DNA from: a virus
IMG/VR virus record: IMGVR_UViG_3300045988_165550
Coordinates: 32,001-96,000 of that record
Reading direction: 5' to 3' (one strand)
DNA length: 64,000 nucleotides
Part shown: in pieces, positions 16,406-49,648 of the stretch
How positions within the stretch are numbered: the first letter of the stretch is position 1
Layout: every line of letters begins with the position of its first letter
Notes under the pieces: generated by a model
The model's input: only the letters and a program-made list of their open reading frames with translations
What the model was told of the DNA's origin: nothing
Database searches by the model: none
Position numbers and translations under genes: made by a program

Positions 16406-16440
16406 CTATAAATTATTAACTATAAACTATCAACTAAAAC
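16406..16440 (+). repeat. Heptamer array A (YTATAAA-type, 5 units of 7 bp)
   Basis: CTATAAA TTATTAA CTATAAA CTATCAA CTAAAAC, abutting the terL stop codon. Shares a 22-nt core with array C1 in inverted orientation. Confidence 0.85.
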
Positions 16441-18443
16441 TAAACGTTCCTTCCGTCCGGCAGTACGAACCAGCCGATATTTCCTCGCCAGAACTTGCAG
16501 CCCAGATATAGCGAGTCGAAGGCATCGGTGAAGTCGGTTCTCTGCTGCAACGGCAGGTTGTCTTCCGTCTCCGCTTTCTTCTCCTGACTCTTATCCTTTC
16601 GGAATCCCTGATAGCCGATACTTACTTCACAGAGCTGCATGGCGATAATCAAATCAGGGTTCTGAGTCTGATTGATACGGATAGCAGGATATTCGATACC
16701 GGCAAGGGCATTATTGATGATGCGATGCTTCACCTCGTGCTTCTCTGGCACACCCATATCTATTGCCGTAACATTCCAACCATTGCGCTCCAACTCCTTA
16801 ATCACTGCCTGGTAGAATCGCTCATCGGTCAAAGCATACGATGCACCCTGCTTTGCGGTGGCATCATAGAAGTAAACCACGTCTCTGTTGATGGCTCTCT
16901 TCGGAGCATAGTAATGTGAGAAATCATCTACCAACTCCCTCAGCTTGCGTTCGTTCTTCACATAGAAGCTTTTGATAACATTCACAGCCTCTACTCCGTC
17001 ACGCTGATATACCTGACCTACCACCAGGGTATTGATATTCGCATTGTAATCGAATGCCAGATAGAGAGGAAGGTCGTTCACGCAGTCAGCATCCATACGG
17101 CAATCGTTTCTCTCGGACAGTTCCTTCAAATCCGGCTGATAGCTCTCTGATGTAATCTTCTTGCCGCCGATGATGCCGGTAGCCTTCTGTGTACTCCAAT
17201 TAGCAACCGAAAGGGGATCTATCTCATTATCATTGACGTATCCATGCACTCTGTCTATGTCTAAATTTGAGTAGAAGCCATCATTAGATTTCTTGACTTT
17301 TACGTTGAGTATAGATACTGCGAAGGTGTATGCAGGGAGATCTCGTTTTAGCTGTTTGATGTAATCTTCACCGAGAATGTCAATATTTTCTAATGTAGAT
17401 GCACGTCTAACTACAAATCCGACCCTTCTTAACTCTCGAAGATACCCGTTTCTGAATTTATCCGATTTGTCAAACATTTGCATTTCCCAATACTCTTCTG
17501 GGGTAAGCAGATATTCATAATCGAATATTAACTCTGCATCATCTGTACTTACCAGATGATAATTTACGGCCATATCGACCATGTTTTTAGAAAGCTGCTT
17601 TCCGTGATTAGGTAATATTTTGAATTGACCTTCATGTTTAATCATTTTGAGTGCAATAGCTCGGATCATACTTCTCACTTCTATTGGTACTACGTGCGGT
17701 GTATGACCTGTTTTTTTTGAGTTATAGAGCAAATCATTATAACGTATTACCTTTCGGGCGTAGTCTTCAAGTTTATCTTGCACCCACTGATATGTCTTTC
17801 CTTTGAAAGGTCCGGATTCTATGATAAGCTCCAATTTTTCGTCTTCCCGCTCCAGCCAGCTTCCCTTCGCCGTCAAAGAGGCATCTGTAACAAACATCCT
17901 GCCTCTATAATAAGGGTTATATTCAGAAAACTCTATATTGCCTAATGGATGGGTCTGTCCTGATAGAGAAGGCATAAACTCTTCGTCGATTTTCTTTTTG
18001 TTTGCAAATCTACCTTCATCCAAAATGGCGTGTGAGAACGTATATGAGTTCGCTGATGCGGTCTGTGCGAGGGATATTGAAGCCCATTGTGCGCCGTTGG
18101 CGAACCATATAATATTATCATAATTTTTTGGCTTAAAAATTGCAGGACGGGCGTGTTTCGGAGGTCTTCCCCATCCCATGTGGATGCCTATTGTGAAACC
18201 GAACATTCGCTCCATTGCTGCCATTGTGCCAGGAATAGTTTTAGAAAAAGCTTGTTGTCTGGAAATAGCAAGCCAAGCGCCCAGCATGCCTGGCATAGAG
18301 TCCGACACTGCCCATACGCGTGGCGCTACCAAGCCATCAGTTTTACCTGTGCGTCGTCCAGCTATGACGATTTCATCTTTTGCTCCCATATAAAAGAGTT
18401 CTTGCTGGAATCTGTTTAAATATATTTGATGTGGTTGCTGCAT
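16440..18443 (-). CDS. terL: Terminase large subunit
   Basis: 667 aa. Walker A is AGRRTGKT, Walker B is HAILDEG, and there is a large C-terminal acidic-residue domain consistent with the nuclease half. Confidence 0.75.
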   Translation of the reverse strand: MQQPHQIYLNRFQQELFYMGAKDEIVIAGRRTGKTDGLVAPRVWAVSDSMPGMLGAWLAISRQQAFSKTIPGTMAAMERMFGFTIGIHMGWGRPPKHARPAIFKPKNYDNIIWFANGAQWASISLAQTASANSYTFSHAILDEGRFANKKKIDEEFMPSLSGQTHPLGNIEFSEYNPYYRGRMFVTDASLTAKGSWLEREDEKLELIIESGPFKGKTYQWVQDKLEDYARKVIRYNDLLYNSKKTGHTPHVVPIEVRSMIRAIALKMIKHEGQFKILPNHGKQLSKNMVDMAVNYHLVSTDDAELIFDYEYLLTPEEYWEMQMFDKSDKFRNGYLRELRRVGFVVRRASTLENIDILGEDYIKQLKRDLPAYTFAVSILNVKVKKSNDGFYSNLDIDRVHGYVNDNEIDPLSVANWSTQKATGIIGGKKITSESYQPDLKELSERNDCRMDADCVNDLPLYLAFDYNANINTLVVGQVYQRDGVEAVNVIKSFYVKNERKLRELVDDFSHYYAPKRAINRDVVYFYDATAKQGASYALTDERFYQAVIKELERNGWNVTAIDMGVPEKHEVKHRIINNALAGIEYPAIRINQTQNPDLIIAMQLCEVSIGYQGFRKDKSQEKKAETEDNLPLQQRTDFTDAFDSLYLGCKFWRGNIGWFVLPDGRNV

Positions 18444-18468
18444 ATTCTTGAATTTTATTTTTATGCAA

Positions 18469-18476
18469 CAAAGTTA
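18469..18476 (-). promoter_or_regulatory. Bacteroidota -7 box on the minus strand, for terL
   Basis: The + strand reads CAAAGTTA, the reverse complement of TAACTTTG. It lies 26 nt upstream of the terL ATG. Confidence 0.55.
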
Positions 18477-18595
18477 TGTATTTCAAAATAAAGGGAAAGG
18501 ACAATTATTTGCAGGTAAGGGTGATATTAATACGAGAAGTAGGTTAATTATTTAAAAATAAAACAATTATTTTTTAGTTTACAGATTCTTTTTGT

Positions 18596-18603
18596 TATCT
18601 TTG
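18596..18603 (+). promoter_or_regulatory. Bacteroidota -7 box
   Basis: TATCTTTG, 25 nt upstream of the ATG at 18628. Confidence 0.6.
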
Positions 18604-18627
18604 CACTAATAAAAATAAAAAGTCAAT

Positions 18628-20205
18628 ATGCCACAGAGAAAATCAACTATAGCAGATAATCCTATCTTAATAGGTTGTTGGGATTATGAAGCAAATAATG
18701 GATTAGATCCTCATAATATCGGAGGGTCTTACGGAAACTCTTTGCAATGGAGGTGTGCAAAATGCAATACCCCCTTTATTGCTACGGGCAAGACGGTTAT
18801 ATCTCGCAATGGCATGTGTAGGAGTTGTTATCTTGAAGAGAAGAACAAATCGAGCCAGGAAAAAGAATCCTTTATTCGGTATGGGAGTTTAGCAGATGTT
18901 CCCGAAATAATGGCTTTGTGGTGTGATGATAATCCGGACCCTCGGACGTTACACAAGACGGATAAAGTGAAAGTTAATATAAGATGTGCAGATTGTGGCA
19001 AGATTACGAGCCATCCTATAATTGATATATATCGTAATCATGCTTTCTATTGTAAGGATTGTGCAGCAAAACGACGAGCAGAAAAATATCAAGCAGCCAT
19101 GATAGAGAAAACGGGATCCTGTAAGGATTATCCTGAAATAATGGAAGTGTGGGATTTTTCTCAAAATGATCTTGACCCAAGCAAGGTCCCGTCTGGCAGC
19201 CGATATATGATAAAATGCAAGTGTCCTATATGTGGTTCTAAGTGGAAAACGAAGGTTTTTCAAAGAAAGGGAAAGAAACCGATGTGCCGATTGTGCGCAA
19301 TTAGAAGTATGGTCCATAAAAGAGACGAGCAGAGAAATCAAGATTTTCTTGTTGACCAGCACAAATCTTTCGGTGATACGGTATATAGGTTTGTTAACTG
19401 GTGGCATCCTACGTTAAATGGCTCTTTGACTCCGTATGATATAGCTCCAGGTTCAGGCAAGACATACTACTGGAAATGTCCGAATAATCATGTATTTTCG
19501 GCAACGGCAAGCAATATGAAGTCGAGACGTTTTTGTCCTATATGCCGACCTACGATACATTCATCTTTCATAGAAATGGCTATTGCTTTTTATCTGCGGA
19601 AAGTCATAGATATAGACCAGTGGAAACAGATTGAAGGTACGAGGCAATCTATAGATATTTATATCCCACGACTTAAGGTTGGTATAGAGTATGATGGTGT
19701 TCGTTATCATAATAATAGAAAGCAAATTAAAAGAGATTGCAGAAAGTCTGAAATATTGGAAAGACAAGGCGTAAGACTGATTCGGATACAGGAGTGGCAG
19801 AGTGATAGTCATAACGACTCTACAATTTTTTATGATTACAACAAGGCTGATCTTCAAGGATTAATGAATACCTTGTGCGATATGTTGTCGATAGAAATGA
19901 TCTTGGTCGATTTAAACAAAGATACTGCTGATATATACAAACTTCTTTATCCTAAAGCTGTTCGTAATTCTATATCAGAGATTTCTCCTCAATTAGTCCC
20001 ATATTGGGACGAAGAGGCTAATGGTGGGGTAACACCTGAAAAAGTGAATGCTTATTCGGCTTTATTCTTTTATTGGCGCTGTCCTGATTGCGGAGCAACA
20101 TGGACCCAATCTCCAATAGGGATGAAAAGACGAAAAAGACTTTGCCAAGTTTGCCATCCGTATAATCATCATAAAGGCGGTAGGCGCGATGGTGAAACAG
20201 AATAG
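18628..20205 (+). CDS. Multi-zinc-ribbon protein with a Vsr/DUF559-like endonuclease domain; candidate free-standing homing endonuclease
   Basis: Five repeats of the W(R/K)C..C...(about 15 aa)...C..C treble-clef pattern, for example LQWRCAKCNT...CRSC and FFYWRCPDCGATW...CQVC. A core IDIYIPRLKVGIEYDGVRYH...LERQGVRLIRIQE is also present. Confidence 0.65.
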   Translation: MPQRKSTIADNPILIGCWDYEANNGLDPHNIGGSYGNSLQWRCAKCNTPFIATGKTVISRNGMCRSCYLEEKNKSSQEKESFIRYGSLADVPEIMALWCDDNPDPRTLHKTDKVKVNIRCADCGKITSHPIIDIYRNHAFYCKDCAAKRRAEKYQAAMIEKTGSCKDYPEIMEVWDFSQNDLDPSKVPSGSRYMIKCKCPICGSKWKTKVFQRKGKKPMCRLCAIRSMVHKRDEQRNQDFLVDQHKSFGDTVYRFVNWWHPTLNGSLTPYDIAPGSGKTYYWKCPNNHVFSATASNMKSRRFCPICRPTIHSSFIEMAIAFYLRKVIDIDQWKQIEGTRQSIDIYIPRLKVGIEYDGVRYHNNRKQIKRDCRKSEILERQGVRLIRIQEWQSDSHNDSTIFYDYNKADLQGLMNTLCDMLSIEMILVDLNKDTADIYKLLYPKAVRNSISEISPQLVPYWDEEANGGVTPEKVNAYSALFFYWRCPDCGATWTQSPIGMKRRKRLCQVCHPYNHHKGGRRDGETE

Positions 20206-20212
20206 GGTCCGC

Positions 20213-20275
20213 TAGGCGTTCCTGCTGGTTTTAAATCCGGCGGAACGCCTAACGGATATGTCAGGTCTTTTTTTT
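20213..20275 (+). terminator. Hairpin plus T8 tract at the end of the + strand insert (possibly bidirectional)
   Basis: 10-bp stem TAGGCGTTCC (20213-22) / GGAACGCCTA (20242-51). The T8 tract is at 20268-75. Confidence 0.5.
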
Positions 20276-20281
20276 ACAGTC

Positions 20282-20563
20282 TTAGAGAAATTTTGCGGGC
20301 TGGCAATCATCGATTAGCTTGCGTGTTTCTTTGGCACACTCAGCCACGCATCTCTCGACTGCCTCGGTGATGTCTTGAATTTGGTTCTCACGCATATTGC
20401 CGTATTTATCGCAAGTGTCGTTTATTATTTTGTAGAGAACCTGATTTTGTAAAGCCTCCATATAATCTACGTACTCCTTGCAAGTACTGCGCCGAGGTGC
20501 TTGCACCCATTTAAGGAAGTCCTGTTTCCAGTCTTTCCATGTTTTTATTTTTATTACTATCAT
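20282..20563 (-). CDS. Hypothetical phage protein
   Basis: 93-aa ORF, last gene of the minus-strand operon 22711 to 20282. Confidence 0.6.
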   Translation of the reverse strand: MIVIKIKTWKDWKQDFLKWVQAPRRSTCKEYVDYMEALQNQVLYKIINDTCDKYGNMRENQIQDITEAVERCVAECAKETRKLIDDCQPAKFL

Positions 20564-20569
20564 TGTTGC

Positions 20570-20893
20570 TTACATTTTAAATTGTCGTTTCAAGAACTGG
20601 TTGCTCTTTATGAGTTCTATCATTTCTTCTTCTGAGTGTGCTCCCTCCCAGAAGAGTTCGGTATGGTCTCCGACCTTATCTTCATCTACAGAGAAAGGCA
20701 CGCCATAGTTAGTATAGGTTTCGCCGTGGTGTTGAATCAGGTGACGACCTGGATTTTTCCGGATGTTTTCTATCCAGACTTCATTATCACACTCGCACCA
20801 TTTATTATACTCCTCTCCTGTCAGTGTCATATCAATACCGATAGGGTAGTGCCCGGAGCACCCATTGGTTCCGAAATAAATAATCTTTGCCAT
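20570..20893 (-). CDS. Hypothetical phage protein
   Basis: 107-aa ORF with a 6-nt gap to the next gene. Confidence 0.6.
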   Translation of the reverse strand: MAKIIYFGTNGCSGHYPIGIDMTLTGEEYNKWCECDNEVWIENIRKNPGRHLIQHHGETYTNYGVPFSVDEDKVGDHTELFWEGAHSEEEMIELIKSNQFLKRQFKM

Positions 20894-20905
20894 AATTTCG
20901 CAGAT

Positions 20906-21676
20906 TTAAAACAGGCTCGGTTGCATCATCTCTAACTTGATACGCTTGCAAGCCTTGTCGTAATATTCTTTGTTCAGCTCAAAGCCGATGAAGTTTCGCT
21001 TTTCTCTGATGCAGGCGATGGCGGTAGTGCCGCTGCCCATGCAGTTATCAAGAACGCACCCCCCCACATTGGTATAAGTACATATCAGATAGCGGAGTAA
21101 ATCTACTGGCTTCTGGGTAGGGTGGAAGGTATCGTTAGAATGTTCTTTGTCGAAGCATATAATGCTCTTTGGAAATTTTTCATCTGATACGATAGTAGGC
21201 ACTTCTTTATGATCGCCATAACAACCTCGCTTCAAACTATGAGAGCCATCTCCCCTTCGATGGTTCCTTTGATGTGGCGCACATTTTACCATTTGAGGAT
21301 TGTAGACAGGTTGTTTTCGATAGAATACTGCAATATCCTCATGCGAGCGCAGAGGCATCTTGTTGGCATTCAGAAAGCCTGTTACCCGTTGTTTGCTCCA
21401 AATAAGATTATATTTCCAGAGTTTCGGCTGTGACATCATAAGTTGTGCGGTAAACATACCTTGGCAGAAAAGAATAATCGCTGCATTGGGTTTGGTTATG
21501 CGCAGATATTCCTTCCATAATGGCTCAAGCGGGATAATACTATCCCAGCCACCGCCTTCACTCTTTTTATTGAGAACGCCATAAGGCAAATCGCAGATAA
21601 TGCAATCCACGCTTGCGTCCGGAATCTTTTTCATTCCTTCCATGCAATCCTCATTATAAATCTTATTTAACTCCAT
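20906..21676 (-). CDS. DNA methyltransferase (N6-adenine/N4-cytosine, beta-class order)
   Basis: The catalytic motif IICDLPYG (DPPY-type) precedes the SAM motif VLDNCMGSGTTAIA, as in the PF01555-type family. Confidence 0.85.
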   Translation of the reverse strand: MELNKIYNEDCMEGMKKIPDASVDCIICDLPYGVLNKKSEGGGWDSIIPLEPLWKEYLRITKPNAAIILFCQGMFTAQLMMSQPKLWKYNLIWSKQRVTGFLNANKMPLRSHEDIAVFYRKQPVYNPQMVKCAPHQRNHRRGDGSHSLKRGCYGDHKEVPTIVSDEKFPKSIICFDKEHSNDTFHPTQKPVDLLRYLICTYTNVGGCVLDNCMGSGTTAIACIREKRNFIGFELNKEYYDKACKRIKLEMMQPSLF

Positions 21677-21679
21677 CCT

Positions 21680-21714
21680 CTATAAACTATAAATTATAAA
21701 CTATCAACTCTTAA
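21680..21714 (+). repeat. Heptamer array B (5 units)
   Basis: CTATAAA CTATAAA TTATAAA CTATCAA CTCTTAA. It spans the 17-nt gap between two minus-strand genes and the last codons of 21694-21933. A 20-mer is identical to array D. Confidence 0.85.
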
Positions 21715-21933
21715 CTTCCCAATGTGCCATTTCGAGCAAACCTTGCACTGATAAGCCGTATATCCGGCAGCCATGATTTTAGGGTGCAGGTGCAGGAACT
21801 CGCAGGCTTCATCCTCACTCTCGTAGGCAACCTTGGCTTTCCAACCGTGGCTGCTTTTCCTCGTCCAGTGTTCCGGATCAGGACGGAAGGGAGGTATCTT
21901 GTTGGGATGATGATTTTCGTATCGCTTACTCAT
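21694..21933 (-). CDS. Small Cys-containing protein
   Basis: 79-aa ORF with QCKVCSKWH near the C-terminus. Confidence 0.5.
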   Translation of the reverse strand: MSKRYENHHPNKIPPFRPDPEHWTRKSSHGWKAKVAYESEDEACEFLHLHPKIMAAGYTAYQCKVCSKWHIGKLRVDSL

Positions 21934-22711
21934 CGGCTGGTTCCTCCTTCATTTCTTTAGTCTGTTTGTCAGCCTCCTTCTCTTCCATCACCTCTTCCAT
22001 GTAGTCGAAGTAATCAGGAGCTTTCTCCGGAGTAGCATTCAGACTCTCCTCATCGGCTATCTGCTGCATATCCTTCACCGTCAAACCGTACTTGCGAGCC
22101 ATCTTGCGCTTATACTCATCGGTATAGTTGATACGGTCGTGCTTCACGATGCTTACATCCTGCGTAATGGCAATACGGCTCATATCCGGCATCTCATCCG
22201 TAGCATCCTTATCCTCCACGAAGTTGCCATATACATTAGCCAGGGCTTGCATACCCTTATCCACCGCGCGGTCGTTGTTCTGCTGCTTGCCTGTGCGGAT
22301 GAGCCATTCAGCGCTGCTCAGATACATCGCCTTGTGGCGAGGACTTTCATCGGTCTGGAAGAAACGGATAATGTGGTTGCAGACTGCCACATCATTATTC
22401 AGTTCCGTAACCGTGCGAGGTTTGATATTTCCTTCATCGTCAATATCAATATGCAGCGCCATCACCATTTCCTGCGCCTCTTTGTTGCCCTGTCCTGCCT
22501 GGTTCACGAAGAGCGTATAGTCGCGCCGTGCGATATTGCGGCAGGTGGTACGCGGGTCTATATCGTTGTTCTGCACCCAGCGTTTGTAGAACTCAGCACA
22601 AATCTGCATGCGGTACCGCTGTTCCAGTTTGGGGAACATCGTCTCCATGCTGAGACCATTTGATAGCCACTTGTCTATCCTCTGCAGGGTGTTTTGCGTT
22701 AATTGGCTCAT
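21926..22711 (-). CDS. Hypothetical protein; candidate small terminase by position only
   Basis: 261-aa ORF, first gene of the minus-strand operon that ends with terL, with an acidic C-terminal tail. I recognise no motif. Confidence 0.35.
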   Translation of the reverse strand: MSQLTQNTLQRIDKWLSNGLSMETMFPKLEQRYRMQICAEFYKRWVQNNDIDPRTTCRNIARRDYTLFVNQAGQGNKEAQEMVMALHIDIDDEGNIKPRTVTELNNDVAVCNHIIRFFQTDESPRHKAMYLSSAEWLIRTGKQQNNDRAVDKGMQALANVYGNFVEDKDATDEMPDMSRIAITQDVSIVKHDRINYTDEYKRKMARKYGLTVKDMQQIADEESLNATPEKAPDYFDYMEEVMEEKEADKQTKEMKEEPADE

Positions 22712-22751: not shown

Positions 22752-22759
22752 CAAAATTA
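22752..22759 (-). promoter_or_regulatory. Bacteroidota -7 box on the minus strand
   Basis: The + strand reads CAAAATTA, the reverse complement of TAATTTTG. It lies 41 nt upstream of the ATG at 22711. Confidence 0.55.
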
Positions 22760-22796
22760 CGAAATCTCCCCTAAATGGTTGGGACAAGGGAGAGAT

Positions 22797-22824
22797 AGTT
22801 GACAGTTGATAGTTTATAGTTAAT
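22797..22824 (-). repeat. Heptamer array C1 (4 units, inverted orientation)
   Basis: AGTTGAC AGTTGAT AGTTTAT AGTTAAT, the reverse complement of the YTATAAA-type units. The 22-nt AGTTGATAGTTTATAGTTAATA equals the reverse complement of part of array A. Confidence 0.85.
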
Positions 22825-22851
22825 AGCATCCTTGCTCAAAGGCGTTAGCTT

Positions 22852-22886
22852 CTATAAACTATAAACTGTAAACTATAAACTATATT
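22852..22886 (+). repeat. Heptamer array C2 (5 units, direct orientation)
   Basis: CTATAAA CTATAAA CTGTAAA CTATAAA CTATATT. It lies 27 bp from C1, between the two divergent -7 boxes. Confidence 0.85.
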
Positions 22887-22914
22887 TTGTCCCTAGCATA
22901 GGGCAAAAATATTC

Positions 22915-22922
22915 TACCTTTG
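22915..22922 (+). promoter_or_regulatory. Bacteroidota -7 box
   Basis: TACCTTTG, 47 nt upstream of the ATG at 22969. Confidence 0.6.
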
Positions 22923-31146: not shown

Positions 31147-31209
31147 AAAACGATTTTTTGTTGATTGTTTAGTTGTTAGTTTTTAAAGTTTTAGTTAATT
31201 GTTAGCAGG

Positions 31210-31241
31210 GCTGCTCCGCTGTGAAGCGTGGCAGCTTTTTT
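31210..31241 (+). terminator. Terminator after the tape measure gene
   Basis: Stem GCTGC..CGC / GCG..GCAGC with an internal 2x2 mismatch, followed by T6 (31236-41). A second perfect hairpin CTGCGGA-TTTCAAA-TCCGCAG lies at 31244-64. Confidence 0.55.
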
Positions 31242-31264
31242 GTCTGCGGATTTCAAATCCGCAG

Positions 31265-31987
31265 GAACGCCTAACGGACACAATTTCTTTTTGGTCCCAT
31301 TTTGCGACCAAGCCCATCATTTAGTGGGCTTTTGATAACTCGCTGATTTAGTGGGCTTTTTGGTCTCAAAAGCATATCTTTGTCCCATTTTTCCCCGAAA
31401 TTCACTACTATATATAAAAATTTCCGTGTATTTTTTCTTTTCCCTAAAATCAAAAACCCCTAACCTCAAACTAGAAGTTAGTAGCATTAACGGCTTTGCC
31501 GTAAACATCAGACAATAAGGTAGTTATGAGGATATAAGGGAGTGGCAGCTAGCGAGAGAAATGCAGGATTTTCTACATATTTTCTGCATATTCCAAATAT
31601 ATTTTTGCATTCCTGCGTACATTAGTTTATAGAAATTAATTAAAAAATGAGACCAAAAATAAGAAAATCGCTGAAAAACAAGCAAATAGCAAAAAATCGT
31701 AGGGGGCTAGCAGTGGGACAATGGTGGGTCAGCAGTGGGGCAAAATCCCTCATTTTCTTCATTAGGGGACTTTAACATTTCGCCCTTCAAAATAAAAATG
31801 GGACCAAAATGAGACTTTTGAGACCAAAATCGGAAGTTTGGTCCCATTTTTGAAAAAACATCCTTTTCGCTTCCGTTCCCAGCGATTCCGTCGCTGGTTT
31901 CCTCTCTCAAACCCATATTAAATGTTAAAAATATAACTTATTTCAAATATTATATAGATAACCTATATTCTTTTCGATTTATTTTTG
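31265..31987. repeat. Repeat-dense non-coding region; candidate replication origin or regulatory hub
   Basis: About 8 copies of TTTTGGTC(C/T)CA / TG(A/G)GACCAAAA, four in each orientation. These include a perfect 15-bp inverted pair, 31794-31808 and 31837-31851. Also present are 2x ATTTAGTGGGCTTTT, tandem TTTTCT(A/G)CATA and 2x AGCAGTGGG. There is no convincing ORF. Confidence 0.6.
31873..31897 (+). repeat. 25-nt hairpin element, copy 3 (intergenic)
   Basis: CCGTTCCCAGCGATTCCGTCGCTGG, about 90 nt upstream of the promoter box at 31988. Confidence 0.9.
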
Positions 31988-31995
31988 TATCTTTG
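31988..31995 (+). promoter_or_regulatory. Bacteroidota -7 box
   Basis: TATCTTTG, 36 nt upstream of the ATG at 32031. Confidence 0.6.
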
Positions 31996-32030
31996 CAGCA
32001 GTTTTAGAAAAGAAATATAATAGTTAAGGT

Positions 32031-33466: not shown

Positions 33467-33504
33467 AGAAAATAAATTTACAGATGGCTTTAAAAACTTC
33501 CATT

Positions 33505-33548
33505 ATATCGAAGCCATATCGAAGCCGTTTCAAAGCCATATCGAAGCC
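33505..33548 (+). repeat. Four tandem 11-bp units upstream of the kinase gene
   Basis: ATATCGAAGCC ATATCGAAGCC GTTTCAAAGCC ATATCGAAGCC. Confidence 0.9.
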
Positions 33549-33600
33549 GTATGCTATTTATTGGTTCTCTATGAGTATAAAACTTTACAAAATAAAAGAT

Positions 33601-34209
33601 ATGAAACAAAAGATTATCGCAATTATGGGTCCATCTGGAGCAGGCAAGGACACGGTGGCAAACATCCTTTCCATCGCCCTGAATATCCCGTTGCTCTGTT
33701 CCTTCACCACCCGTCCCATGAGGGATGGCGAGGTAAACGGTAAGGAGCATTTTTTCGTGAAGGAGTGCAAGACTCCCAAGGAGGATATGCTTGCCTACAC
33801 CGAATATGGTGGCTACGAGTATTGGACGGAACTCGCCCAGATAGAAGATGTCGCCATCTATGTGATTGACGAAAAAGGATTCCTGGGCATCTGTGAGCAT
33901 TTTCCGGATATTGAACTGATGAGTATTTATGTGGCTGCCAAGCCCGAAACGCTGAAGGCTCGCGGCATCGCCCCTGAAAGAACCAACCGTGATGAATATC
34001 GTGTATCGCTGGATATTAACTCCTTCGATTACGTTATCAGCAATAATTCATCGCTCTACCGCTTGCTGATTACCACGCTGGATGTAGTGAAGTGCATCAG
34101 AACTGCTAACGGAGAAACACGGAAGTATGAAGCAGAGGCAGAAGAGAGACTGAAAAAAGGAGGAGTGGCAGCACAGAACTTCATCCGCCTTCTCAGCGCC
34201 TTCTTTTAA
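33601..34209 (+). CDS. Guanylate-kinase-family nucleoside monophosphate kinase
   Basis: Start trimmed to MKQKIIAIMGPSGAGKDT (P-loop). FTTRPMRDGEVNGKEHFFV matches the TTRxxRxGExxGxxYxF signature. Confidence 0.8.
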   Translation: MKQKIIAIMGPSGAGKDTVANILSIALNIPLLCSFTTRPMRDGEVNGKEHFFVKECKTPKEDMLAYTEYGGYEYWTELAQIEDVAIYVIDEKGFLGICEHFPDIELMSIYVAAKPETLKARGIAPERTNRDEYRVSLDINSFDYVISNNSSLYRLLITTLDVVKCIRTANGETRKYEAEAEERLKKGGVAAQNFIRLLSAFF

Positions 34210-34278
34210 GAGAAACCATCTGTTTCCGTGGAGCAGAAAGCAGATTTTTAATATATAAACATCAAATAAAGAAACAAT

Positions 34279-35172
34279 ATGAAAATGATAATTCCTGGTG
34301 TTGAGTGGTGGCCTCAGAAGACCGCCGCTCAACAGATTGCCCGAGTAGGCAGAGTTTGCTACAAGAGCAAGGGTAAGCAGCCTGACGAGAATCTTTCTGA
34401 AGAGCAGAAAGAGAAGTTCTTGGAAGAACAGGCAGTGAAGTTGGCCAACCGATTCTGGGAGAGCGGTCATCGCTCCATGTATCGACACGGCACTCTTTAC
34501 TTTTTTATCAAGAACGATAGTAAACTGCCGAAACACCTTTGGTCTTTCCTTATCGCATCTCCATATATCAGCTATGCAGTGCAGGAAAAGAAGGTATGGA
34601 TCAGCAGCAACATGCAGTTCCTCTGCGAGCATGGCAGCATTCTCGAAATGCTATCCCCATTCAATGTGAAGGAAGCCGAGTTTATCGAAAAGGCGCAGAA
34701 ATATGATTTCATAGAAGCACTCAATATCCTCCGCATGACGCTGGTCGTTACTACGCAGATCAGCACCAGCCGTGAGTTGAACCGCACATCGCCTAACTGC
34801 ATCAGCGAGCAGAGCACCCGCTACGTGAACCTGGAGAAGAAAGGTGGCGTTCAGATTGCCCGTCCGCACTGGCTGCATGAGGGTACGAAATGGCAGAAAT
34901 TTCTCTATCTTTCCGGCTGCAAGGTTTCCGACTGGCTCTATCGCCGATTGCTGAAATCGGGCATGAAGCCGCAGGATGCCCGCGGTATTCTCCCTCTTGA
35001 TACCTATACGGTGGTAGCCTACACCTATACCATCAGTGAGTGGCAGCATATCCTCGACCTCCGCTTCAGAGAAACCACCGGCAAGGCGCATCCTAACGCC
35101 AAAGAGGTAAGTTTCGAGATTAACCGCATCATCAGCGAAAGAATGGAAATGTTCGAGACTCAAAAGAAATAA
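34279..35172 (+). CDS. thyX: ThyX-family (flavin-dependent thymidylate synthase-like) protein, divergent
   Basis: ARVGRVCYKS, SGHRSMYRHG, ISTSRELNRTSPNCISEQSTRYV (SxRY core) and ISEWQHILDLRFRETTGKAHPNAKEV. Where the canonical RHR motif would align by eye, the sequence reads LNRT. Confidence 0.6.
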   Translation: MKMIIPGVEWWPQKTAAQQIARVGRVCYKSKGKQPDENLSEEQKEKFLEEQAVKLANRFWESGHRSMYRHGTLYFFIKNDSKLPKHLWSFLIASPYISYAVQEKKVWISSNMQFLCEHGSILEMLSPFNVKEAEFIEKAQKYDFIEALNILRMTLVVTTQISTSRELNRTSPNCISEQSTRYVNLEKKGGVQIARPHWLHEGTKWQKFLYLSGCKVSDWLYRRLLKSGMKPQDARGILPLDTYTVVAYTYTISEWQHILDLRFRETTGKAHPNAKEVSFEINRIISERMEMFETQKK

Positions 35173-40809: not shown

Positions 40810-40825
40810 CCTTCTCCTGCCCCCC

Positions 40826-40850
40826 CCGTTCCCAGCGATTCCATCGCTGG
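40826..40850 (+). repeat. 25-nt hairpin element, copy 4 (17 nt after the capsid TAG, preceded by C8)
   Basis: CCGTTCCCAGCGATTCCATCGCTGG. Its VPSDSIAG frame is in phase with the capsid ORF. Confidence 0.9.
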
Positions 40851-42809: not shown

Positions 42810-42948
42810 CTTAGTACCAAAGTACATTTGTACTTATGTACTTCTGCACGTTTGTACTTTTTCTTATCTGTCTATTAGTGTTCCTGCTTCATGATTTATC
42901 CGCAAGAACATCTAATAAAAATCACTTTTCAGTTTACTTCATTCCTAT

Positions 42949-45150: not shown

Positions 45151-45705
45151 ATGGCAAAGATTCAACCTCTTGCAGATTTCATTCTCTCCTTCGAGGGAGG
45201 TTACGTGAACCACCCCAACGATAAGGGTGGTCCTACCAACATGGGCGTAACATTGAAAACCTGGCAAACCCAAGGTTACGACAAGAACCATGATGGCCGC
45301 ATAGACGCAAAGGACGTGAAGCTTATCACAAAAGCCGATGCTATCTCCATCCTTCGCCGTTGCTACTGGAACCGATGGAAAGCCGATGGCATCAAAGACC
45401 AGAGCATCGCCAACATCCTGGTAGATTGGGTATGGATCAGCGGCACACCAGGCATCACCCTCGTACAGGCTATGCTGGGCGTAACCGCCGATGGTATCGT
45501 AGGCAACAAAACTCTCAAGGCGCTCAATAGCCAGAACCCTAAGCGGTTTTTCGAGCGCATCAAGGCACGCCGCAAGCAATACATCGCTAGAGTCATTGCC
45601 CTGTGCCCTAGTCAGAAGGGCTTCGAGGCAGGCTGGCTCCGTCGTCTCAATGCTATCAGTTACGGCAGTCTTATCTCCAATAATGGCAAAGAAATAAAGT
45701 GGTAA
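45151..45705 (+). CDS. Endolysin: GH108 lysozyme domain plus a PG_binding_3-type domain
   Basis: ILSFEGGYVNHPNDKGGPTNMGVT is the GH108 N-terminal signature. The length and C-terminal half fit the usual two-domain architecture. Confidence 0.85.
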   Translation: MAKIQPLADFILSFEGGYVNHPNDKGGPTNMGVTLKTWQTQGYDKNHDGRIDAKDVKLITKADAISILRRCYWNRWKADGIKDQSIANILVDWVWISGTPGITLVQAMLGVTADGIVGNKTLKALNSQNPKRFFERIKARRKQYIARVIALCPSQKGFEAGWLRRLNAISYGSLISNNGKEIKW

Positions 45706-45706
45706 T

Positions 45707-46813
45707 ATGGAAGCAAAGATAAACCTCACCATCCCGAAAAGCTGGAACCAATGCACCCCCACCCAGCTAGAGCAGATAGCCCTTATCATGCTGGAGCAGA
45801 TAGAGAAATCCAAGGCAGACCGCTATCACCCTTTCGATATGCAGAAGGTGAAAGTAGCCGTCTTCTTTCTCTTTGCCGGGATAAGCATCAACACCTATCC
45901 CGACCCCCGTCTGCCCATCAATGAGCAGCACTACCTGGTAAGCATAGAGCCGCAAAAAAAGAGCCTCCTGAAGAAGTTCCTCTCCCTCTGCGCCACCGTT
46001 CCCAGCGATTCCGTCGCTGGTACCAAATCGGCTATCCACTTTCCCCTCTATCTTTGGCAGCTCAACTATTGGCTCTCCCCAAAAGCTAAGACCGATGATA
46101 AAACCTCCCCAGAGTACATCGCTCAGGGCGCAGGTCTTCTCGATTGGCTGGATGCAGATAGTGGCTATTTCCTCACCCGCTTCCCCTATCCGATTATCGG
46201 ACAGAAAGCCAAGTGGTATCGTCGTGCAAAAGCCTTCCGTGGTCCGAACCCAGACCTCGATGGCTTCTCCTGGCAGCAATACCGTTTTGCCAGCGATATG
46301 ATGCAGACCTACACCCGTTTGGATAACAACCTGATAAAGATGAAGAAGATGAATAAATTCACCGAGGAACAACTCCAGACGCAAGCCCAGAGTGTAGCCA
46401 GCGCCAGAAACATGTTCCTTGCCACCATCTTCAACACCACCACCCAGTACATCGACCCGGCAACAGGCATCACGAAATACGATTTTCACTACGAGTCAAA
46501 GCAGTTCACCGAGAACGCAGGTTATTTCGTCAAATATCCGGAAGCCAACTGGCAGGTCATCCTCTTCTGGTGGAGCGGCATCATGCACACCCTAGCCCGT
46601 CGCTACCCTCACGTATTCAAGGTGCAGAAGGTAGATAATAAGAAGCCGCAAACCCCGATGGAAATCTACACCGCCACCACCGCTACGATGCAGAAGTATG
46701 CCGGCTTAACGGAAGATCAGGTCAACACTCAATCCTATTCCCTCGTTCTCGAACACCTCGAAAGGTTATCGAAAGAGAATGAGGAAATGGAAAAGATGAG
46801 GAGAGAAAAATGA
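45707..46813 (+). CDS. Hypothetical protein; contains hairpin element copy 5
   Basis: 368-aa ORF starting 1 nt after the endolysin stop. Confidence 0.7.
   Translation: MEAKINLTIPKSWNQCTPTQLEQIALIMLEQIEKSKADRYHPFDMQKVKVAVFFLFAGISINTYPDPRLPINEQHYLVSIEPQKKSLLKKFLSLCATVPSDSVAGTKSAIHFPLYLWQLNYWLSPKAKTDDKTSPEYIAQGAGLLDWLDADSGYFLTRFPYPIIGQKAKWYRRAKAFRGPNPDLDGFSWQQYRFASDMMQTYTRLDNNLIKMKKMNKFTEEQLQTQAQSVASARNMFLATIFNTTTQYIDPATGITKYDFHYESKQFTENAGYFVKYPEANWQVILFWWSGIMHTLARRYPHVFKVQKVDNKKPQTPMEIYTATTATMQKYAGLTEDQVNTQSYSLVLEHLERLSKENEEMEKMRREK
45996..46020 (+). repeat. 25-nt hairpin element, copy 5 (inside a CDS)
   Basis: CCGTTCCCAGCGATTCCGTCGCTGG, translated in frame as VPSDSVAG. Confidence 0.9.
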
Positions 46814-46835
46814 TGATTATAAAAACAATAAGATT

Positions 46836-47207
46836 ATGGAAAGAAACAACCGACTGCCTAACGTGATATTCTTATCACCAAAGGCTTCTGAGATGATAGA
46901 AAGTTTGACAACAGAAGATGTAGTTTGTCTTGAGAATGAAGCAAATGGCATAAGCATCAAAAATGCGTCTTTTTGTGATGCCGACACGGATGAAACAGCA
47001 GAATATCGCAACATTATTCAACTATGGCACCCAGCCGAAGAGAAACCGCATTGCATAGGGTCGCTTCTTTGTTGGCGACGCGATGGCACTCATTTTGTGC
47101 ATGAACATTTCTCCCACGACGAACAGAACTGGCGAATGTTTATTAGCGAATACGACGTGAAGTGTTATTGTTATATCGCCAACTTGGAGCCTGACTCGTT
47201 CTCTTGA
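46836..47207 (+). CDS. Hypothetical protein
   Basis: 123-aa ORF with start context AAGATTATGG. Confidence 0.55.
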   Translation: MERNNRLPNVIFLSPKASEMIESLTTEDVVCLENEANGISIKNASFCDADTDETAEYRNIIQLWHPAEEKPHCIGSLLCWRRDGTHFVHEHFSHDEQNWRMFISEYDVKCYCYIANLEPDSFS

Positions 47208-47214
47208 TTTGTAT

Positions 47215-47355
47215 ATGGTTAGACAACAGCCTTTGAATGTTTGTATGGGGGGGGTGGCCGTAACACTAAATACTCGATACGAACGTTTGTGTGTAGAGCA
47301 TTTGATGTCTTTGGCTCATTTCCCAAGGACAGGAGTATTCATTGAGTATGATTAA
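47215..47355 (+). CDS. Possible small ORF (46 aa) containing a G8 tract
   Basis: My translation is MVRQQPLNVCMGGVAVTLNTRYERLCVEHLMSLAHFPRTGVFIEYD. It fills the gap between neighbouring genes. G8 is at 47247-54. Confidence 0.25.
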   Translation: MVRQQPLNVCMGGVAVTLNTRYERLCVEHLMSLAHFPRTGVFIEYD

Positions 47356-47361
47356 AGATTC

Positions 47362-47670
47362 ATGAGTCATAATACATTAAAAATAGAGAAGGATAAATTC
47401 AGAGAACACTCTGTAATTTTATCCCGTTCAACCGTAAGTGATACGGTTGTAATCAAGTGTGGTTCAGAAAGCGTGTGTCTTGAGCAAGACGAATTTAAAG
47501 TGTTGGCACATCTCATGTGCTACGATTTCTATACACGAGGTATGATCGAGGAAGCTCAAGAACATAGCCGGAATGATGTTCGTCCATATGATATATATTC
47601 TACTCCTGATATAGAAGGTTACGATGAGAAGATTAATTGGGATTTGGCTGTAGAAAATAACAGCAAATAA
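47362..47670 (+). CDS. Hypothetical protein
   Basis: 102-aa ORF. Confidence 0.5.
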   Translation: MSHNTLKIEKDKFREHSVILSRSTVSDTVVIKCGSESVCLEQDEFKVLAHLMCYDFYTRGMIEEAQEHSRNDVRPYDIYSTPDIEGYDEKINWDLAVENNSK

Positions 47671-47809
47671 CATTATGATTTGTCCCCTCAAAAACTATAA
47701 AAAACCATAACTTTACACTCAGAAACAAGAGAAATAGGTGTGCGTATATCGCCACCATTCTCTCTTTCAATCACATTCAGGATAACATATAAAAAAAAGA
47801 AACGCAAAA

Positions 47810-49627
47810 ATGGCAAGCAAAAACAAAAACAGAGTAACCACCCTGCAGCAGCTCCAAAATCGTAGTGAGGAACTGAAAGATGCAGGCTATGTAGCCGTTC
47901 GCCCCGATGCCTTTACACCGCTTAAAAATGGCGGCGGTAAAGTCTTCTCCTGGAATGACTACGTTCACGGCATGCTACTTACCACAGCCGGTATGTCGGC
48001 AAGCGGTGGCGACGCAGGCGGTTCCGCAGCACGTCAGCAAGTCTCCACTATCTTTGCATCAAGTGGCGGCGAGAACCTGGGCAAACCAAAAGGCGTAGGT
48101 ACCGAAGGCTTAGGCTTTATGGAATGGGGTATGGCCAACCGACTGCCTAACCTTATCTGGATGCTCTCCCGTATGTCGCCTTTTACAGCAGCAGGAGTAG
48201 ATTACATCAAGAAGATACTGGTAGGTCGTGGTCCCGCAGCCAAGTATCATTACACCCAGTATGTAGGCGGTAACATCACGGAGAAGTATATCCCCTACGA
48301 GAGTGCAGGAGTCCTGCTCCGCGGTCAGATTGCCGACCTCAAAGCCAAGGAAGAGGCAGCCGCCGAAGCCAAGCGACAGAACGAGCAGCAGAGCCAGAAC
48401 GGGCAGTCTCAGCAGGAGGAGTCACCGTTCTCTGCGGTTCAATCGCAGGTCTTATCCTCCGATGAAGGTGAAAGCGAGGAGATGAAATCTCTGAAAGAAG
48501 CTCTCCGCAAATGGGAAGAAACCAATGCCCAGCTTCGTGATTTCTTGGAAAACAACGACCTGATGCAGACCTTCCTCGACCTGGCAGGAGATATGGCTTT
48601 GATGTCGCAGTGCTTTGTAGAACTTCAGCTCAATCAGCGTTCCCTCGACGAGAACGGCAAAGCGGTTCCTACTGCCCAGTGGACCCCGAAGGTAATCGGT
48701 CTGAAGCACCGCAGCATCTTCACTACCCGACTGGAGCGCATGGACGAGAACTACCGCATCAACTATGCCTACGTGAGCAATCAATGGCTCGACCCTACCC
48801 AATACGTCGGCGTGCAGAAAGAGGAAGACCGCAAGATAGCTGCTATCCCCTATCTCCCTACCACATCAGCCGTAAAGGATTTGCAGCGCAATATCCGTGA
48901 GGCACGTCAGAAGCAGGTAAGCCGCAAGAAACGCCCTACCCGCTTCATCATGTCACCAAGAGATTTCGGCGGTCCCTACTATGCCGATGCCCTTTGGCAC
49001 TCTATCTTTGCCGGCAGCATCTTTGAATATGCCTTTACTATCGTGGATGACCGCCTTACCCGAAAGCGCAACAGTAACATTATCGGTAGAGTGATCTATA
49101 TCCATCAGGACTATATCAACAAACTCTATCAGCAGCAGGGCGAGCAGAAGAAGAAAACCATCGGTGAGATTCAGAACGAAATCTTTACCTCTATTAACAC
49201 ATGGCTCTCTAACCCAGATAATGCTGGTCAGGCGCTCATCTCTTCTGCTTTCACGGGAAGCGACGGCAAGGAGCACAAAGCTTGGGAAATAGTGGAAATC
49301 GAAACCAAGGCAAATGATCAGGCAAATGCCGATAAGACCGAGTTGCAAGAAATAAGCAGTATCATTTTCTTTGCCATGGGTCTTGATGCAAAGCTCATCG
49401 GTAATACTCCTGGCGATACAGCATCATCGGGCGGTACCGACCTGAGAGAGCGTTTCCTGGTCAAGCAAATCCAGTTTGCCCCATTGCAGCAGTTGATGAT
49501 ACGCCCATTGGAAGTTTTGAGCCGCTTCAACGATTGGGATGAGCACCTGGTGTGGCAGATAGACCGAGAGGTATTAACCACCCTCGATAACTCGAAGACC
49601 GGAGTGGCAAAGCAGGAAAGCATTTAA
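47810..49627 (+). CDS. Portal-like protein
   Basis: 605 aa. The segment ISSIIFFAMGLDAKLIGNTPGDTASSGGTDLRERFLVKQIQFAPLQQLMIRPLEVL resembles the conserved portal core (afGvPxxLlG...f....i.P.q). There is a Gln/Glu-rich insert. Confidence 0.55.
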   Translation: MASKNKNRVTTLQQLQNRSEELKDAGYVAVRPDAFTPLKNGGGKVFSWNDYVHGMLLTTAGMSASGGDAGGSAARQQVSTIFASSGGENLGKPKGVGTEGLGFMEWGMANRLPNLIWMLSRMSPFTAAGVDYIKKILVGRGPAAKYHYTQYVGGNITEKYIPYESAGVLLRGQIADLKAKEEAAAEAKRQNEQQSQNGQSQQEESPFSAVQSQVLSSDEGESEEMKSLKEALRKWEETNAQLRDFLENNDLMQTFLDLAGDMALMSQCFVELQLNQRSLDENGKAVPTAQWTPKVIGLKHRSIFTTRLERMDENYRINYAYVSNQWLDPTQYVGVQKEEDRKIAAIPYLPTTSAVKDLQRNIREARQKQVSRKKRPTRFIMSPRDFGGPYYADALWHSIFAGSIFEYAFTIVDDRLTRKRNSNIIGRVIYIHQDYINKLYQQQGEQKKKTIGEIQNEIFTSINTWLSNPDNAGQALISSAFTGSDGKEHKAWEIVEIETKANDQANADKTELQEISSIIFFAMGLDAKLIGNTPGDTASSGGTDLRERFLVKQIQFAPLQQLMIRPLEVLSRFNDWDEHLVWQIDREVLTTLDNSKTGVAKQESI

Positions 49628-49648
49628 TTATAAACTATAAATTATAAA
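49628..49648 (+). repeat. Heptamer array D (3 units)
   Basis: TTATAAA CTATAAA TTATAAA fills the gap between the portal-like gene and the next ATG. The 20-mer TATAAACTATAAATTATAAA is identical to 21681-21700. Confidence 0.85.

Follow-up and report, generated by a model that had tools for sequence, protein, structure and literature searches.

The tandem heptamer arrays found in a 64,000-nucleotide stretch of a phage genome (hereafter the window, meaning that whole stretch) are this phage's copies of a lineage-specific, fast-changing and interspersed non-coding element that fills gene junctions. The carriers of this element are uncultured gut phages of ~100 kb that belong to one family and whose contigs fall into Prevotella bins. 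We give a probability of roughly 0.45 to the reading, drawn from comparison of the sequences, that the element is a portable junction module acting in cis, supplying an AT-rich upstream or leader stretch, able to form a hairpin and turning over by slippage and recombination. An earlier note had tied the arrays to the packaging genes, but this association turned out to be a coincidence of where the window has its strand switches and gene junctions.

The arrays of the window

The heptamer arrays that the earlier note had described at four loci are all there, as five period-7 arrays of the CTATAAA type lying within a few bases of where it had placed them. The arrays and two nearby features are the following.

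A1, 16406-16442, + strand: solo arm of ~5 heptamers (CTATAAA TTATTAA CTATAAA CTATCAA CTAAAAC)
A2, 21680-21714, + strand: solo arm, T-rich on the mRNA
A3a, 22794-22826, unit on the - strand: cassette arm toward the promoter of the operon of the 261-aa gene
A3b, 22852-22886, + strand: cassette arm toward the promoter of the holin and tape-measure operon
A4, 49626-49652, + strand: solo A-rich arm
Remnant, 18567-18589, - strand: two units (CTGTAAA CTAAAAA) in the TerL / HNH divergent region, with only 16/21 matches
GC-rich hairpin GGGGCGG...CCGCCCC, 16363-16400, no strand given: between the early arm and A1, RNA fold z -3.2

A site was counted as an array when at least 18 of its 21 positions matched (CTATAAA)3 on either strand, and beyond these five no site reaches this level on the two strands of the whole 64 kb. 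The comparison with a randomised control that had been proposed gives five arrays observed for ~0 expected: none was found in 100 first-order Markov randomisations of the window, and the mean was 0.005 arrays in 200 randomisations that kept the intergenic composition (66.5% AT). The unit follows the consensus YTRTNAA, in which T2, T4, A6 and A7 are constant and the variable positions are concentrated. The two long words said to link the loci are also real, since a 22-mer TATTAACTATAAACTATCAACT occurs in A1 and, inverted, in A3a, and A2 and A4 both contain a 20-mer TATAAACTATAAATTATAAA in direct orientation. A1, A2 and A4 are solo arms devoid of a core and have no adjoining promoter; A3a and A3b form an inverted pair around a core. 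It had also been noted that the early arm is devoid of arrays, and this is correct for this window, although relatives do carry early-arm arrays.

The solo arms sit tightly against genes. A1 begins at the stop codon of TerL (TAG, complement of 16440-16442) and is T-rich on the TerL mRNA strand; the GC-rich hairpin beside it, which is kept in most relatives, is likely a bidirectional terminator. A2 covers the last codons and the stop of a 79-aa gene and ends 3 nt ahead of the methyltransferase ATG, and A4 occupies the 23-nt gap that runs from the stop of the portal-like gene to the ATG of a DUF6712 gene. The TerL label holds well: the 667-aa product of 16440..18443 (- strand) contains a Walker A (GRRTGKT) and a Walker B (ILDE) motif, its match to annotated large terminases of Microcystis phages covers 78% of its length at 31% identity, and its similarity to those of Porphyromonas phages is weaker and partial. 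The portal label of the 605-aa product can be kept tentatively, with 26% identity over 47% to the portal of Polaribacter phage Leef_1 (E 2e-14).

A cassette between two divergent promoters

The pair at 22.8 kb is a palindromic cassette, composed of a T-rich arm, a 16-bp core and an A-rich arm, and it is placed exactly between the -33 boxes of two back-to-back promoters of the Bacteroidetes type, for which the Bacteroides consensus is TTTG / TAnnTTTG. Its core and the two promoters are as follows.

Cassette core CTCAAAGGCGTTAGCT, 22835-22850, + strand: inside the 25-bp spacer 22827-22851, single copy in the window
Promoter of the holin / tape-measure operon, 22885-22922, + strand: -33 TTTTGTCCC (22885-22893), -7 TACCTTTG (22915-22922), read from the sequence
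Promoter of the 261-aa gene, 22752-22788, - strand: -33 CTTGTCCC (complement of 22781-22788), -7 TAATTTTG (complement of 22752-22759)

The conserved 16-bp core held between the inverted arms A3a and A3b is CTCAARRGCGYTAGCY. The last two bases of A3b overlap the -33 box of the + strand promoter, which is itself conserved in relatives both with and without the cassette. As DNA, the whole cassette of the window is predicted to fold into a hairpin of -20.5 kcal/mol (z -6.0), and the cassette of the relative L002, taken as RNA, into one of -47 kcal/mol (z -7.6). However, a cassette located between divergent promoters is not expected to be transcribed, and an RNA hairpin therefore cannot be its role at this place.

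Distribution and turnover in the family

The survey was extended to ~130 related loci, and the location of the arrays was counted on the non-redundant arrays of 80 relatives and the window, of which 102 out of 106 are intergenic, as compared to 21% of intergenic DNA. An arm is made of ~3.5-6 tandem heptamers and is AT-rich, with one A-rich and one T-rich strand, and its length stays within a narrow range of ~25-40 bp. Relatives carry three to five or more cassettes or cores per contig, at ten or more different junctions, and solo arms without a core are common. The core and its left flank are nearly identical among copies found at different sites; the arms are the variable part of the element. 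Within a cassette both arms are of the same type in 34/35 cases, and the order T-rich arm, core, A-rich arm is found in 33/35. The orientation of the core relative to the genes is the same in 18 cases and opposite in 16.

The arrays also have a preferred placement relative to expression signals. Sixteen of them end 0-12 bp upstream of a promoter of the form -33 TTGTCCC ... TAnnTTTG, with the A-rich strand toward that promoter. Beside start codons the coding strand of an array is usually the A-rich one, as it is in each of the four array types found at the A4 junction; A2, directly ahead of its start codon, is T-rich and not A-rich.

What occupies a given junction changes from one relative to another. 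Whether behind the TerL stop, ahead of the DUF6712 gene or between the divergent promoters, the junctions of relatives show TTCAACA, TTCAAAA, GAAATGA or GGTAAAA units, a full cassette, or nothing. In particular, the TerL stop can be followed by CTATAAA-type, TGTTGAA, TTTTGAR, AGTGATT or GGTAAAA arrays, by full cassettes or by the terminator only, and the A4 site ahead of the DUF6712 gene can hold TTCAACA, GAAATGA, GTAAAAA or CTATAAA arrays, or a hairpin without an array. The junction of the divergent promoters exists in an empty form, GGGACAAAG-GGATTTT-CTTGTCCC (L011, L019 and L041), and in a filled form, where the cassette has CTATAAA, TTCAACA or AAGTGAA arms. Copy number, too, differs among near-identical relatives (L017 as compared to L018 and L024; L046 as compared to L049). 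Indel and mosaic boundaries fall at the same places: in L052, L019 and L001, a second methyltransferase gene, which is 199 aa long when intact, as in L052, lies at the A2 site between two TTTATAG stretches, so that A2 marks the indel of a methyltransferase gene, and similarity breakpoints are located at A1, at A2 and around A3.

Several heptamer types coexist in each genome, with up to four or five of them within a single 22-kb locus, and a type is hardly more often shared by distant sites of the same genome than by different genomes (only 1/6 comparisons reached p = 0.01). Together, these two features argue against one genome-specific recognition code. In the lineage of the window and L052, the otherwise rare CTATAAA type is present at four junctions at once, which could reflect selection by a type-specific factor.

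A proposed junction module acting in cis

If the element is indeed such a module, its arms would act in cis through their composition and symmetry, and not as a packaging signal or any other sequence-specific one. An A-rich arm would place AT-rich DNA ahead of the downstream promoter, at about -37 to -70, or would provide the downstream start codon with an A-rich and little-structured leader; a T-rich arm would trail the upstream gene. Paired arms could form a stem of ~30 bp that presents the core in its loop. As the arms are tandem repeats, they would be prone to slippage, changing both their copy number and their heptamer type in this way, and they may serve as short homologies for the exchange of genes and of whole junctions. 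The sequences themselves show how the element is built, how it is distributed over the family, how it turns over, that it can form hairpins and where it stands relative to promoters and to start and stop codons; any effect on transcription, translation or recombination, and any reader of the core, we infer. Several observations were counted against the module: the T-rich A2 directly before a start codon, the near-invariant core, the cassette between divergent promoters that is not expected to be transcribed, the period of 7 with its narrow arm length, and the presence of CTATAAA at four junctions of the window and L052.

Known systems offer partial parallels. The PeSL cassettes (promoter-early stem-loop) of T4-type phages are non-coding, lie at junctions by promoters and stand on either side of variable genes, whose modular shuffling they are believed to mediate. 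The present element is likewise found at junctions, where the indel of a methyltransferase gene (A2) and the similarity breakpoints (A1 and A3) are comparable; unlike the promoter and stem-loop of PeSL, it consists of tandem heptamers, and its use in recombination would be by analogy. In Haemophilus influenzae, the hmw adhesin genes are preceded by contingency repeats which, like our arrays, are tandem, 7 bp long and close to promoters, and differ in copy number among close relatives. Phase-variable repeats switch expression through their copy number from within a reading frame or from between the core promoter boxes. In contrast, the arrays of the window are mostly not at a promoter, and they are outside the -33 / -7 spacer and, bar a few terminal codons, outside reading frames.

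Possible operators for a polymerising protein

Slippage alone is insufficient to account for the period of 7 and the narrow arm length of ~25-40 bp, and cooperative protein binding would fit both. A possible but doubtful alternative, reached by analogy, is that the arrays are operators for a small protein which would bind as one dimer per heptad and polymerise along contiguous heptads, like the ribbon-helix-helix protein omega (ParB) of plasmid pSM19035. A3 would then control two divergent late promoters, and the solo arrays would be roadblocks or extra sites. Omega sites, which make up operator and centromere arrays, are contiguous heptads, of which four or more are needed (PMC9499535). In both systems the 7-bp units are contiguous, number ~4-10 per array, are oriented directly or inversely, and occupy several loci of a replicon, also ahead of promoters (PMC9499535); the phage arrays have 4-5 repeats each. 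The arms that adjoin -33 boxes (A3a, A3b and the 16 arrays in relatives), the concentration of variable positions in YTRTNAA, the narrow array length and the single type used by both arms of a cassette also suit such operators, and lineage-specific units would fit co-evolution with a binder.

The same reading has to contend with the four or five unit types that can coexist in a single 22-kb locus and with the lack of a clear within-genome matching of types. Moreover, neither a ribbon-helix-helix domain nor any other DNA-binding domain came up in Pfam and PHROG scans of the ~65 proteins of the window, beyond which the genome extends for another ~35-40 kb. A2 and A4 are a few bases from start codons with no promoter nearby, and the conserved core is given no role. 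Compared to the omega unit WATCACW, the phage unit is different in sequence, and only the relative L019 happens to have AATCACT; the many coexisting types, the arrays located at start and stop codons and the non-repeat core between paired arms are further departures from the omega sites. The idea of operators for a late regulator, as put forward in the earlier note, or of an architectural element near promoters, stays viable for the 22.8-kb pair only, each arm of which adjoins the -33 box of one of the divergent promoters. Several types coexist in single genomes, and no cognate DNA-binding protein was found among those of the window.

Another operator-like system is that of the stoperators of cluster A mycobacteriophages, which are single 13-bp sites of one type per genome, matched to its repressor. 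Like our element, they are a short motif dispersed over small gaps between genes, with a lineage-specific sequence and an orientation that is biased relative to transcription. Unlike stoperators, the phage sites are tandem heptamers of several types per genome.

A selfish repeat as a less likely reading

Bacterial chromosomes contain short multicopy, intergenic and hairpin-forming inverted pairs of ~100 bp, often at gene ends, such as REP, BIME, RIP and REPINs in proteobacteria or Correia in Neisseria, and their known effects are on mRNA and on neighbouring promoters rather than one dedicated function. The arrays could similarly be a selfish, non-autonomous mobile or gene-converting repeat that would spread from junction to junction, be tolerated where harmless and have no role for the phage, with an enzyme reading the core in the loop of a hairpin or cruciform. 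We regard this as unlikely. The element is multicopy, confined to junctions, found in either orientation, present or absent at otherwise conserved sites, nearly identical from site to site in its core and left flank, and palindromic and hairpin-forming in its build, all of which recalls REPINs and MITEs; the order bias of 33/35 would in addition fit a purging of terminator-like copies. However, no target-site duplication is seen when the filled and empty sites of the divergent-promoter junction are compared, and no gene for a transposase, a RAYT or an HUH protein turned up in the window. A conserved centre with variable, microsatellite-like arms is the reverse of what is known for MITEs and REPINs, the replicon is here a phage, and coreless solo arms are common.

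Unlikely readings: RNA pairing, packaging and bent DNA

It is very improbable that the arrays work through RNA-RNA pairing. In that scheme, the start region of the DUF6712 mRNA would be masked when its A-rich leader, A4, pairs with U-rich copies in minus-strand mRNAs, namely A1 at the TerL 3' end and A2 in the leader of the methyltransferase gene. The A2 and A4 RNAs do share a perfect complement of 20 nt, both at start codons, and the paired arms of relatives give very stable predicted RNA hairpins, but the A2 and A4 sites are seldom of the same type in relatives, the A3 arms are upstream of their promoters and the orientation of the core relative to the genes is random.

The reading that the earlier note put first, a pac-type recognition array for the small terminase, is scarcely tenable. 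A pac site of the SPP1 or P22 type is found once per genome, in or beside the small terminase gene, and some, such as that of SPP1, contain short repeats. A2 and A3 are indeed no more than 1 kb from the 261-aa gene, which is the first of an operon that has TerL as its last gene, but the small terminase label given to the 261-aa product was supported neither by Pfam, PHROGs or PDB sequences nor by phage records or a fold search. Furthermore, the five arrays are dispersed over 33 kb, one of them 27 kb away beside a gene with no packaging role, and homologous junctions have other heptamers or nothing. The arrays do not co-vary with the 261-aa protein: L016 and L019 encode a 100% identical one and lack the A1 and A3 arrays, and relatives whose proteins are 94-99% identical to each other have, at the A2 site, arrays of the CTATAAA type, of the GAAATGA type or mixed ones. 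The contigs of relatives end at scattered positions and have no common end near the arrays. A pac site is not supported, with neither a single site beside TerS nor co-variation with the 261-aa protein being found.

Intrinsically bent A-tract DNA with an architectural role is just as implausible, even if every unit ends in AAA and arrays stand upstream of two promoters: bends add up only when A-tracts are phased with the helical repeat of 10-11 bp, the 7-bp period rotates successive A-runs by ~240 degrees so that bends cancel over three units, and unit types such as TTCAACA and AATCACT contain no A-tract.

The conserved core and its possible significance

The junction module, in its purely compositional form, does not explain the conservation of the core, and the near-invariance of these 16 bp between copies suggests that something reads them. 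We also consider, tentatively and as a lesser possibility, that the cassette, with its invariant 16-bp core between two heptad arms, is a recognition platform for a phage or host protein. This protein could regulate genes globally through a heptad code that evolves fast, or it could be an enzyme that recognises the core when a hairpin is extruded with the core in its loop, and that then nicks, primes or mobilises DNA; the solo CTATAAA arrays would be half-sites. If this were true, phage genomes would contain, in these cassettes, a dispersed functional DNA element of a new class.

The heptamer arrays and their setting

Five period-7 arrays of the CTATAAA type lie where the earlier note placed them, and Tandem Repeats Finder gives each of them 3.9-5.4 copies:

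16406-16442: A1, which starts at the TerL stop codon
21680-21714: A2, which shares bases with the end of the 79-aa gene and reaches to within 3 nt of the methyltransferase ATG
22794-22826, unit on the minus strand: A3a, whose A-rich strand reads toward a -33 box and ends five bases short of it
22852-22886: A3b, whose A-rich strand reads toward a -33 box and overlaps it by two bases
49626-49652: A4, which spans the 23-nt gap that precedes the DUF6712 gene

A3a and A3b stand back to back between two divergent promoters. After A1 comes a conserved GC hairpin, with which both the TerL transcript and the early arm probably end. The in-register consensus of the units is YTRTNAA, in which T2, T4, A6 and A7 are nearly constant. 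Stop codons in all three frames were rejected as a feature, being expected by chance for many units among AT-rich heptamers. When both strands of the window were scanned at a threshold of at least 18/21 matches to (CTATAAA)3 in any phase, only these five arrays passed, and a two-unit remnant at 18567-18589 fell below it. Randomisation of the whole window produced 0 arrays in 100 trials against the five observed, and randomisation at intergenic composition a mean of 0.005 per trial. The long matches that had been reported between the loci (a 22-mer common to A1 and A3a in inverted orientation, and a 20-mer common to A2 and A4) were recovered as well.

The window comes from the genome of a tailed phage and is arranged as follows:

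398-16154, plus strand: genes
16440-22711, minus strand: block of the 667-aa, 93-aa, 107-aa, N6/N4 methyltransferase, 79-aa and 261-aa genes
18628-20205, opposite strand, flanked by TerL and the 93-aa gene: gene of an HNH-type endonuclease that has four DUF4379 zinc-finger repeats
from 22969, plus strand: genes resume, with holin-like, 2095-aa tape measure, primase-like, ThyX, head protease and endolysin genes

Walker A (GRRTGKT) and Walker B (ILDE) motifs are present in the 667-aa protein. Over 78% of its length it is 31% identical to proteins annotated as large terminases in Microcystis phages, and its similarity to those of Porphyromonas phages is weaker and partial; these features therefore support its label as TerL. 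A weak match to the portal of Polaribacter phage Leef_1 makes the portal label of the 605-aa protein a tentative one. The 261-aa protein, which had been proposed as the small terminase, finds no support for that label: it has no match of any kind, its AlphaFold model is poor (pLDDT 58) and gave no Foldseek match, and a deep homology search returned unnamed close relatives only. Searches of PDB sequences gave no meaningful match, also when family profiles of TerL and of the portal-like protein were used, and a search of the phage collection for near-identical DNA found nothing. Relatives of TerL are found in metagenome bins named Prevotella. The HNH-type endonuclease gene is probably a mobile insertion, since it is missing from 79 of the 80 relatives. 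Among the products of the early and middle arms are two radical-SAM-like proteins, two GNAT acetyltransferases, a nucleotide kinase and ThyX (7196-7813, 10080-11066, 7826-8401, 15193-15552 and 33484-35172), a set that may hint at nucleotide or DNA modification.

Promoters of the Bacteroidetes type have the consensus TAnnTTTG at -7 and TTTG at -33, and they are present in the intergenic regions of the window. In a subclass the -33 box is extended (TTTGTCCC) and TAnnTTTGC follows 20-25 bp downstream. The two sets, which may be two temporal classes, are distributed as follows:

about 15.57, 18.50 (minus strand), 22.75 (minus strand), 22.89, 37.73, 45.08 and 47.68 kb: promoters of the TTTGTCCC class
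0.15, 18.60, 31.99, 41.85, 42.95 and 58.12 kb: -7 box without GTCCC

A scan with sigma-70 promoter and terminator patterns gave nothing informative for a host of the Bacteroidetes type.

Arrays in related phages

A search with TerL gave 80 related loci, on viral contigs of about 50-110 kb and at 75-91% protein identity, and a search with the DUF6712 gene gave 49 further loci. Period-7 arrays are common in these relatives, with units that differ from those of the window (TTCAACA, TTCAAAA / CTCAAAA, TTAAACA, TTAATAA, GAAATGA, AAGTGAA and AATCACT), together with a 6-8-bp GGTAAAA(A) unit. They are intergenic in 102 of 106 non-redundant cases, whereas the intergenic share of the DNA is only 21%. 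Six array types occur at the junction homologous to that of A1, where other relatives have a two-armed cassette or the terminator alone; the A4 junction holds four array types or an unrelated hairpin. Many arrays lie in the arm beyond TerL in the clade at 75-80% identity; the absence of arrays from the early arm, which the earlier note had remarked on, is thus particular to the window and does not extend to the family.

The arrays also mark places of turnover. Their copy number varies between near-identical relatives, and when the DNA of the window is compared with that of its relatives, similarity breaks off at A1, at A2 and around A3; against the related locus L052, for example, TerL is 85% identical and both flanks are 94-99% identical. 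At A2, L052 and two other relatives (L019 and L001) carry a second methyltransferase gene between two TTTATAG stretches (199 aa when intact, as in L052); the window lacks this gene and has just one array there.

The paired arrays and their core

In the related loci L011, L019 and L041, the divergent promoters are directly back to back, as GGGACAAAG-GGATTTT-CTTGTCCC, whereas in the window, L052 and L027 an insert of ~90 bp lies exactly between the -33 boxes and consists, in order, of a T-rich arm, a spacer and an A-rich arm. Inserts of the same build have TTCAACA arms in L040 and L006 and AAGTGAA arms in L053 and L058. The spacer holds a conserved 16-bp core, CTCAARRGCGYTAGCY, whose copy in the window is CTCAAAGGCGTTAGCT at 22835-22850. 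We call the two arms with their core a cassette, and an array without a partner a solo arm. The relatives have three to five or more copies of the core per contig, at ten or more different junctions. Its orientation is that of the genes in 18 cases and opposite in 16, and a directional core (a promoter or an RNA motif) was rejected, as there is no fixed direction relative to the genes. The order T-rich arm, core, A-rich arm is kept in 33/35 cassettes, and both arms are of one type in 34/35, as against 61% of non-adjacent array pairs of the same locus. Half-cassettes, made of the core and the A-rich arm, also exist, as in L206 and L214, which have CTATAAA arms at the A4 junction.

Folding of the cassettes predicts stable hairpins. 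A register-specific hairpin with arm variants in mirror order was rejected, as a shift of the register by 7 nt leaves the pairing almost as good; it costs little, and the unit variants are therefore not in mirror order. A separate hairpin, GTTCCCAGCGATTC(N)ATCGCTGG, recurs in gene junctions of the window (3494-3554, about 31920-31950 and 40820-40850) and of relatives (L188-L219, L257 and L298), in which it is often directly beside the cassette core or the A-rich arm. The motif GGAACGCCTAACGGA is found at two terminator-like hairpins of the window, at 20240-20262 and 31255-31275, and the related GCCTAACGGACTCAAG is part of the cassette spacer in relatives.

Interpretation of the arrays

The best reading is that the arrays are arms, solo or paired, of a junction element that is interspersed and particular to this phage family. 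How this element is built, where it occurs and how it turns over can be followed directly in the compared loci; its effects on expression and recombination are inferred. The arms would act mainly through what they are: they would provide an AT-rich, strand-asymmetric stretch before promoters and start codons and behind stop codons, they could form a long hairpin when paired, and their repetitive build would be prone to slip and recombine. Such a compositional reading does not account for the invariant core and the strict 7-bp period, and these two features keep two other models open.

In one of them, which we hold to be rather unlikely, the arrays are bound by a protein. The earlier note had proposed operator sites of a regulator, which may hold for A3, and the geometry of the arrays is similar to that of the heptads to which omega of pSM19035 binds. 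However, up to four or five unit types occur within one 22-kb locus, distant sites of one genome share a type hardly more often than at background level, and no DNA-binding protein was found among the ~65 proteins of the window. One binder per genome was rejected, as heptamer type matching between distant sites does not exceed background. In L019, a cassette at 12003-12087 has AATCACT-repeat arms, which happen to fit the WATCACW heptad of omega. In the other model, more doubtful still, the core and the period would belong to a selfish element.

The pac site suggested from the proximity to packaging genes is disfavoured: the window has five array sites, and the presence and type of the arrays are not tied to the 261-aa protein. 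L016 and L019 have 100% identical 261-aa proteins and lack the A1 and A3 arrays, and relatives whose 261-aa proteins are 94-99% mutually identical nevertheless have CTATAAA-type, GAAATGA-type or mixed arrays at A2. The contig ends of relatives give no common terminus. Bent DNA, also put forward at first, is at odds with a 7-bp period that is out of phase with the helix and with the lack of an A-tract in some units. T4-late-like (TATAAATA) or T7-like promoters were rejected, as the other unit types misfit and no phage RNA polymerase is evident.

An origin role for the arrays was rejected in favour of a better candidate: a non-coding, iteron-rich stretch of 884 bp (31147-32030), immediately upstream of the gene for the primase-like protein (which has a BT4734-like N-terminal domain and PriCT_2), carries densely spaced copies of GGGACCAAAAT, GAGACCAAAAT and GGTCCCATTTT in both orientations. 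Its first part (31147-31200), after the tape-measure stop and before a terminator hairpin, is a T-rich quasi-heptamer run (TTGATTG TTTAGTTG TTAGTTTT ...) that resembles a decayed T-rich arm. Two further repeats were seen. At 52625-52668, three tandem 14-mers of two heptamers each (ATAGAAA TCAGAAA) run right up to the ATG of the 968-aa gene, forming a sixth, 7/14-periodic A-rich array of a different unit, absent from the earlier note. At 42815-42861, six tandem 8-mers GTACnnnn (GTACCAAA GTACATTT GTACTTAT ...) lie ~90 bp upstream of a TACCTTTGC promoter.

The repeats are not described in the literature searched, no Rfam family covers them, and Rfam and tRNA scans of the window were empty. The closest in kind include REP/REPIN-like palindromes, the PeSL cassettes of T4, omega heptads and the stoperators of mycobacteriophages, but the arrays do not share all the defining features of any of them.

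Significance for this phage family

Human gut metagenomes contain phages of this family in abundance, and hardly any protein or signal of these phages can be given a name. The repeat family described here is present at many gene junctions, differs in its unit between close relatives and lies at promoters, start codons and indel boundaries. It could offer a handle on gene expression and modular gene exchange, and a practical marker for strain typing. For annotation, it warns that short repeats near terminase genes are not to be taken as pac sites. If the core or the heptads are read by something, a new regulator or enzyme would be at work, one that merits isolation.
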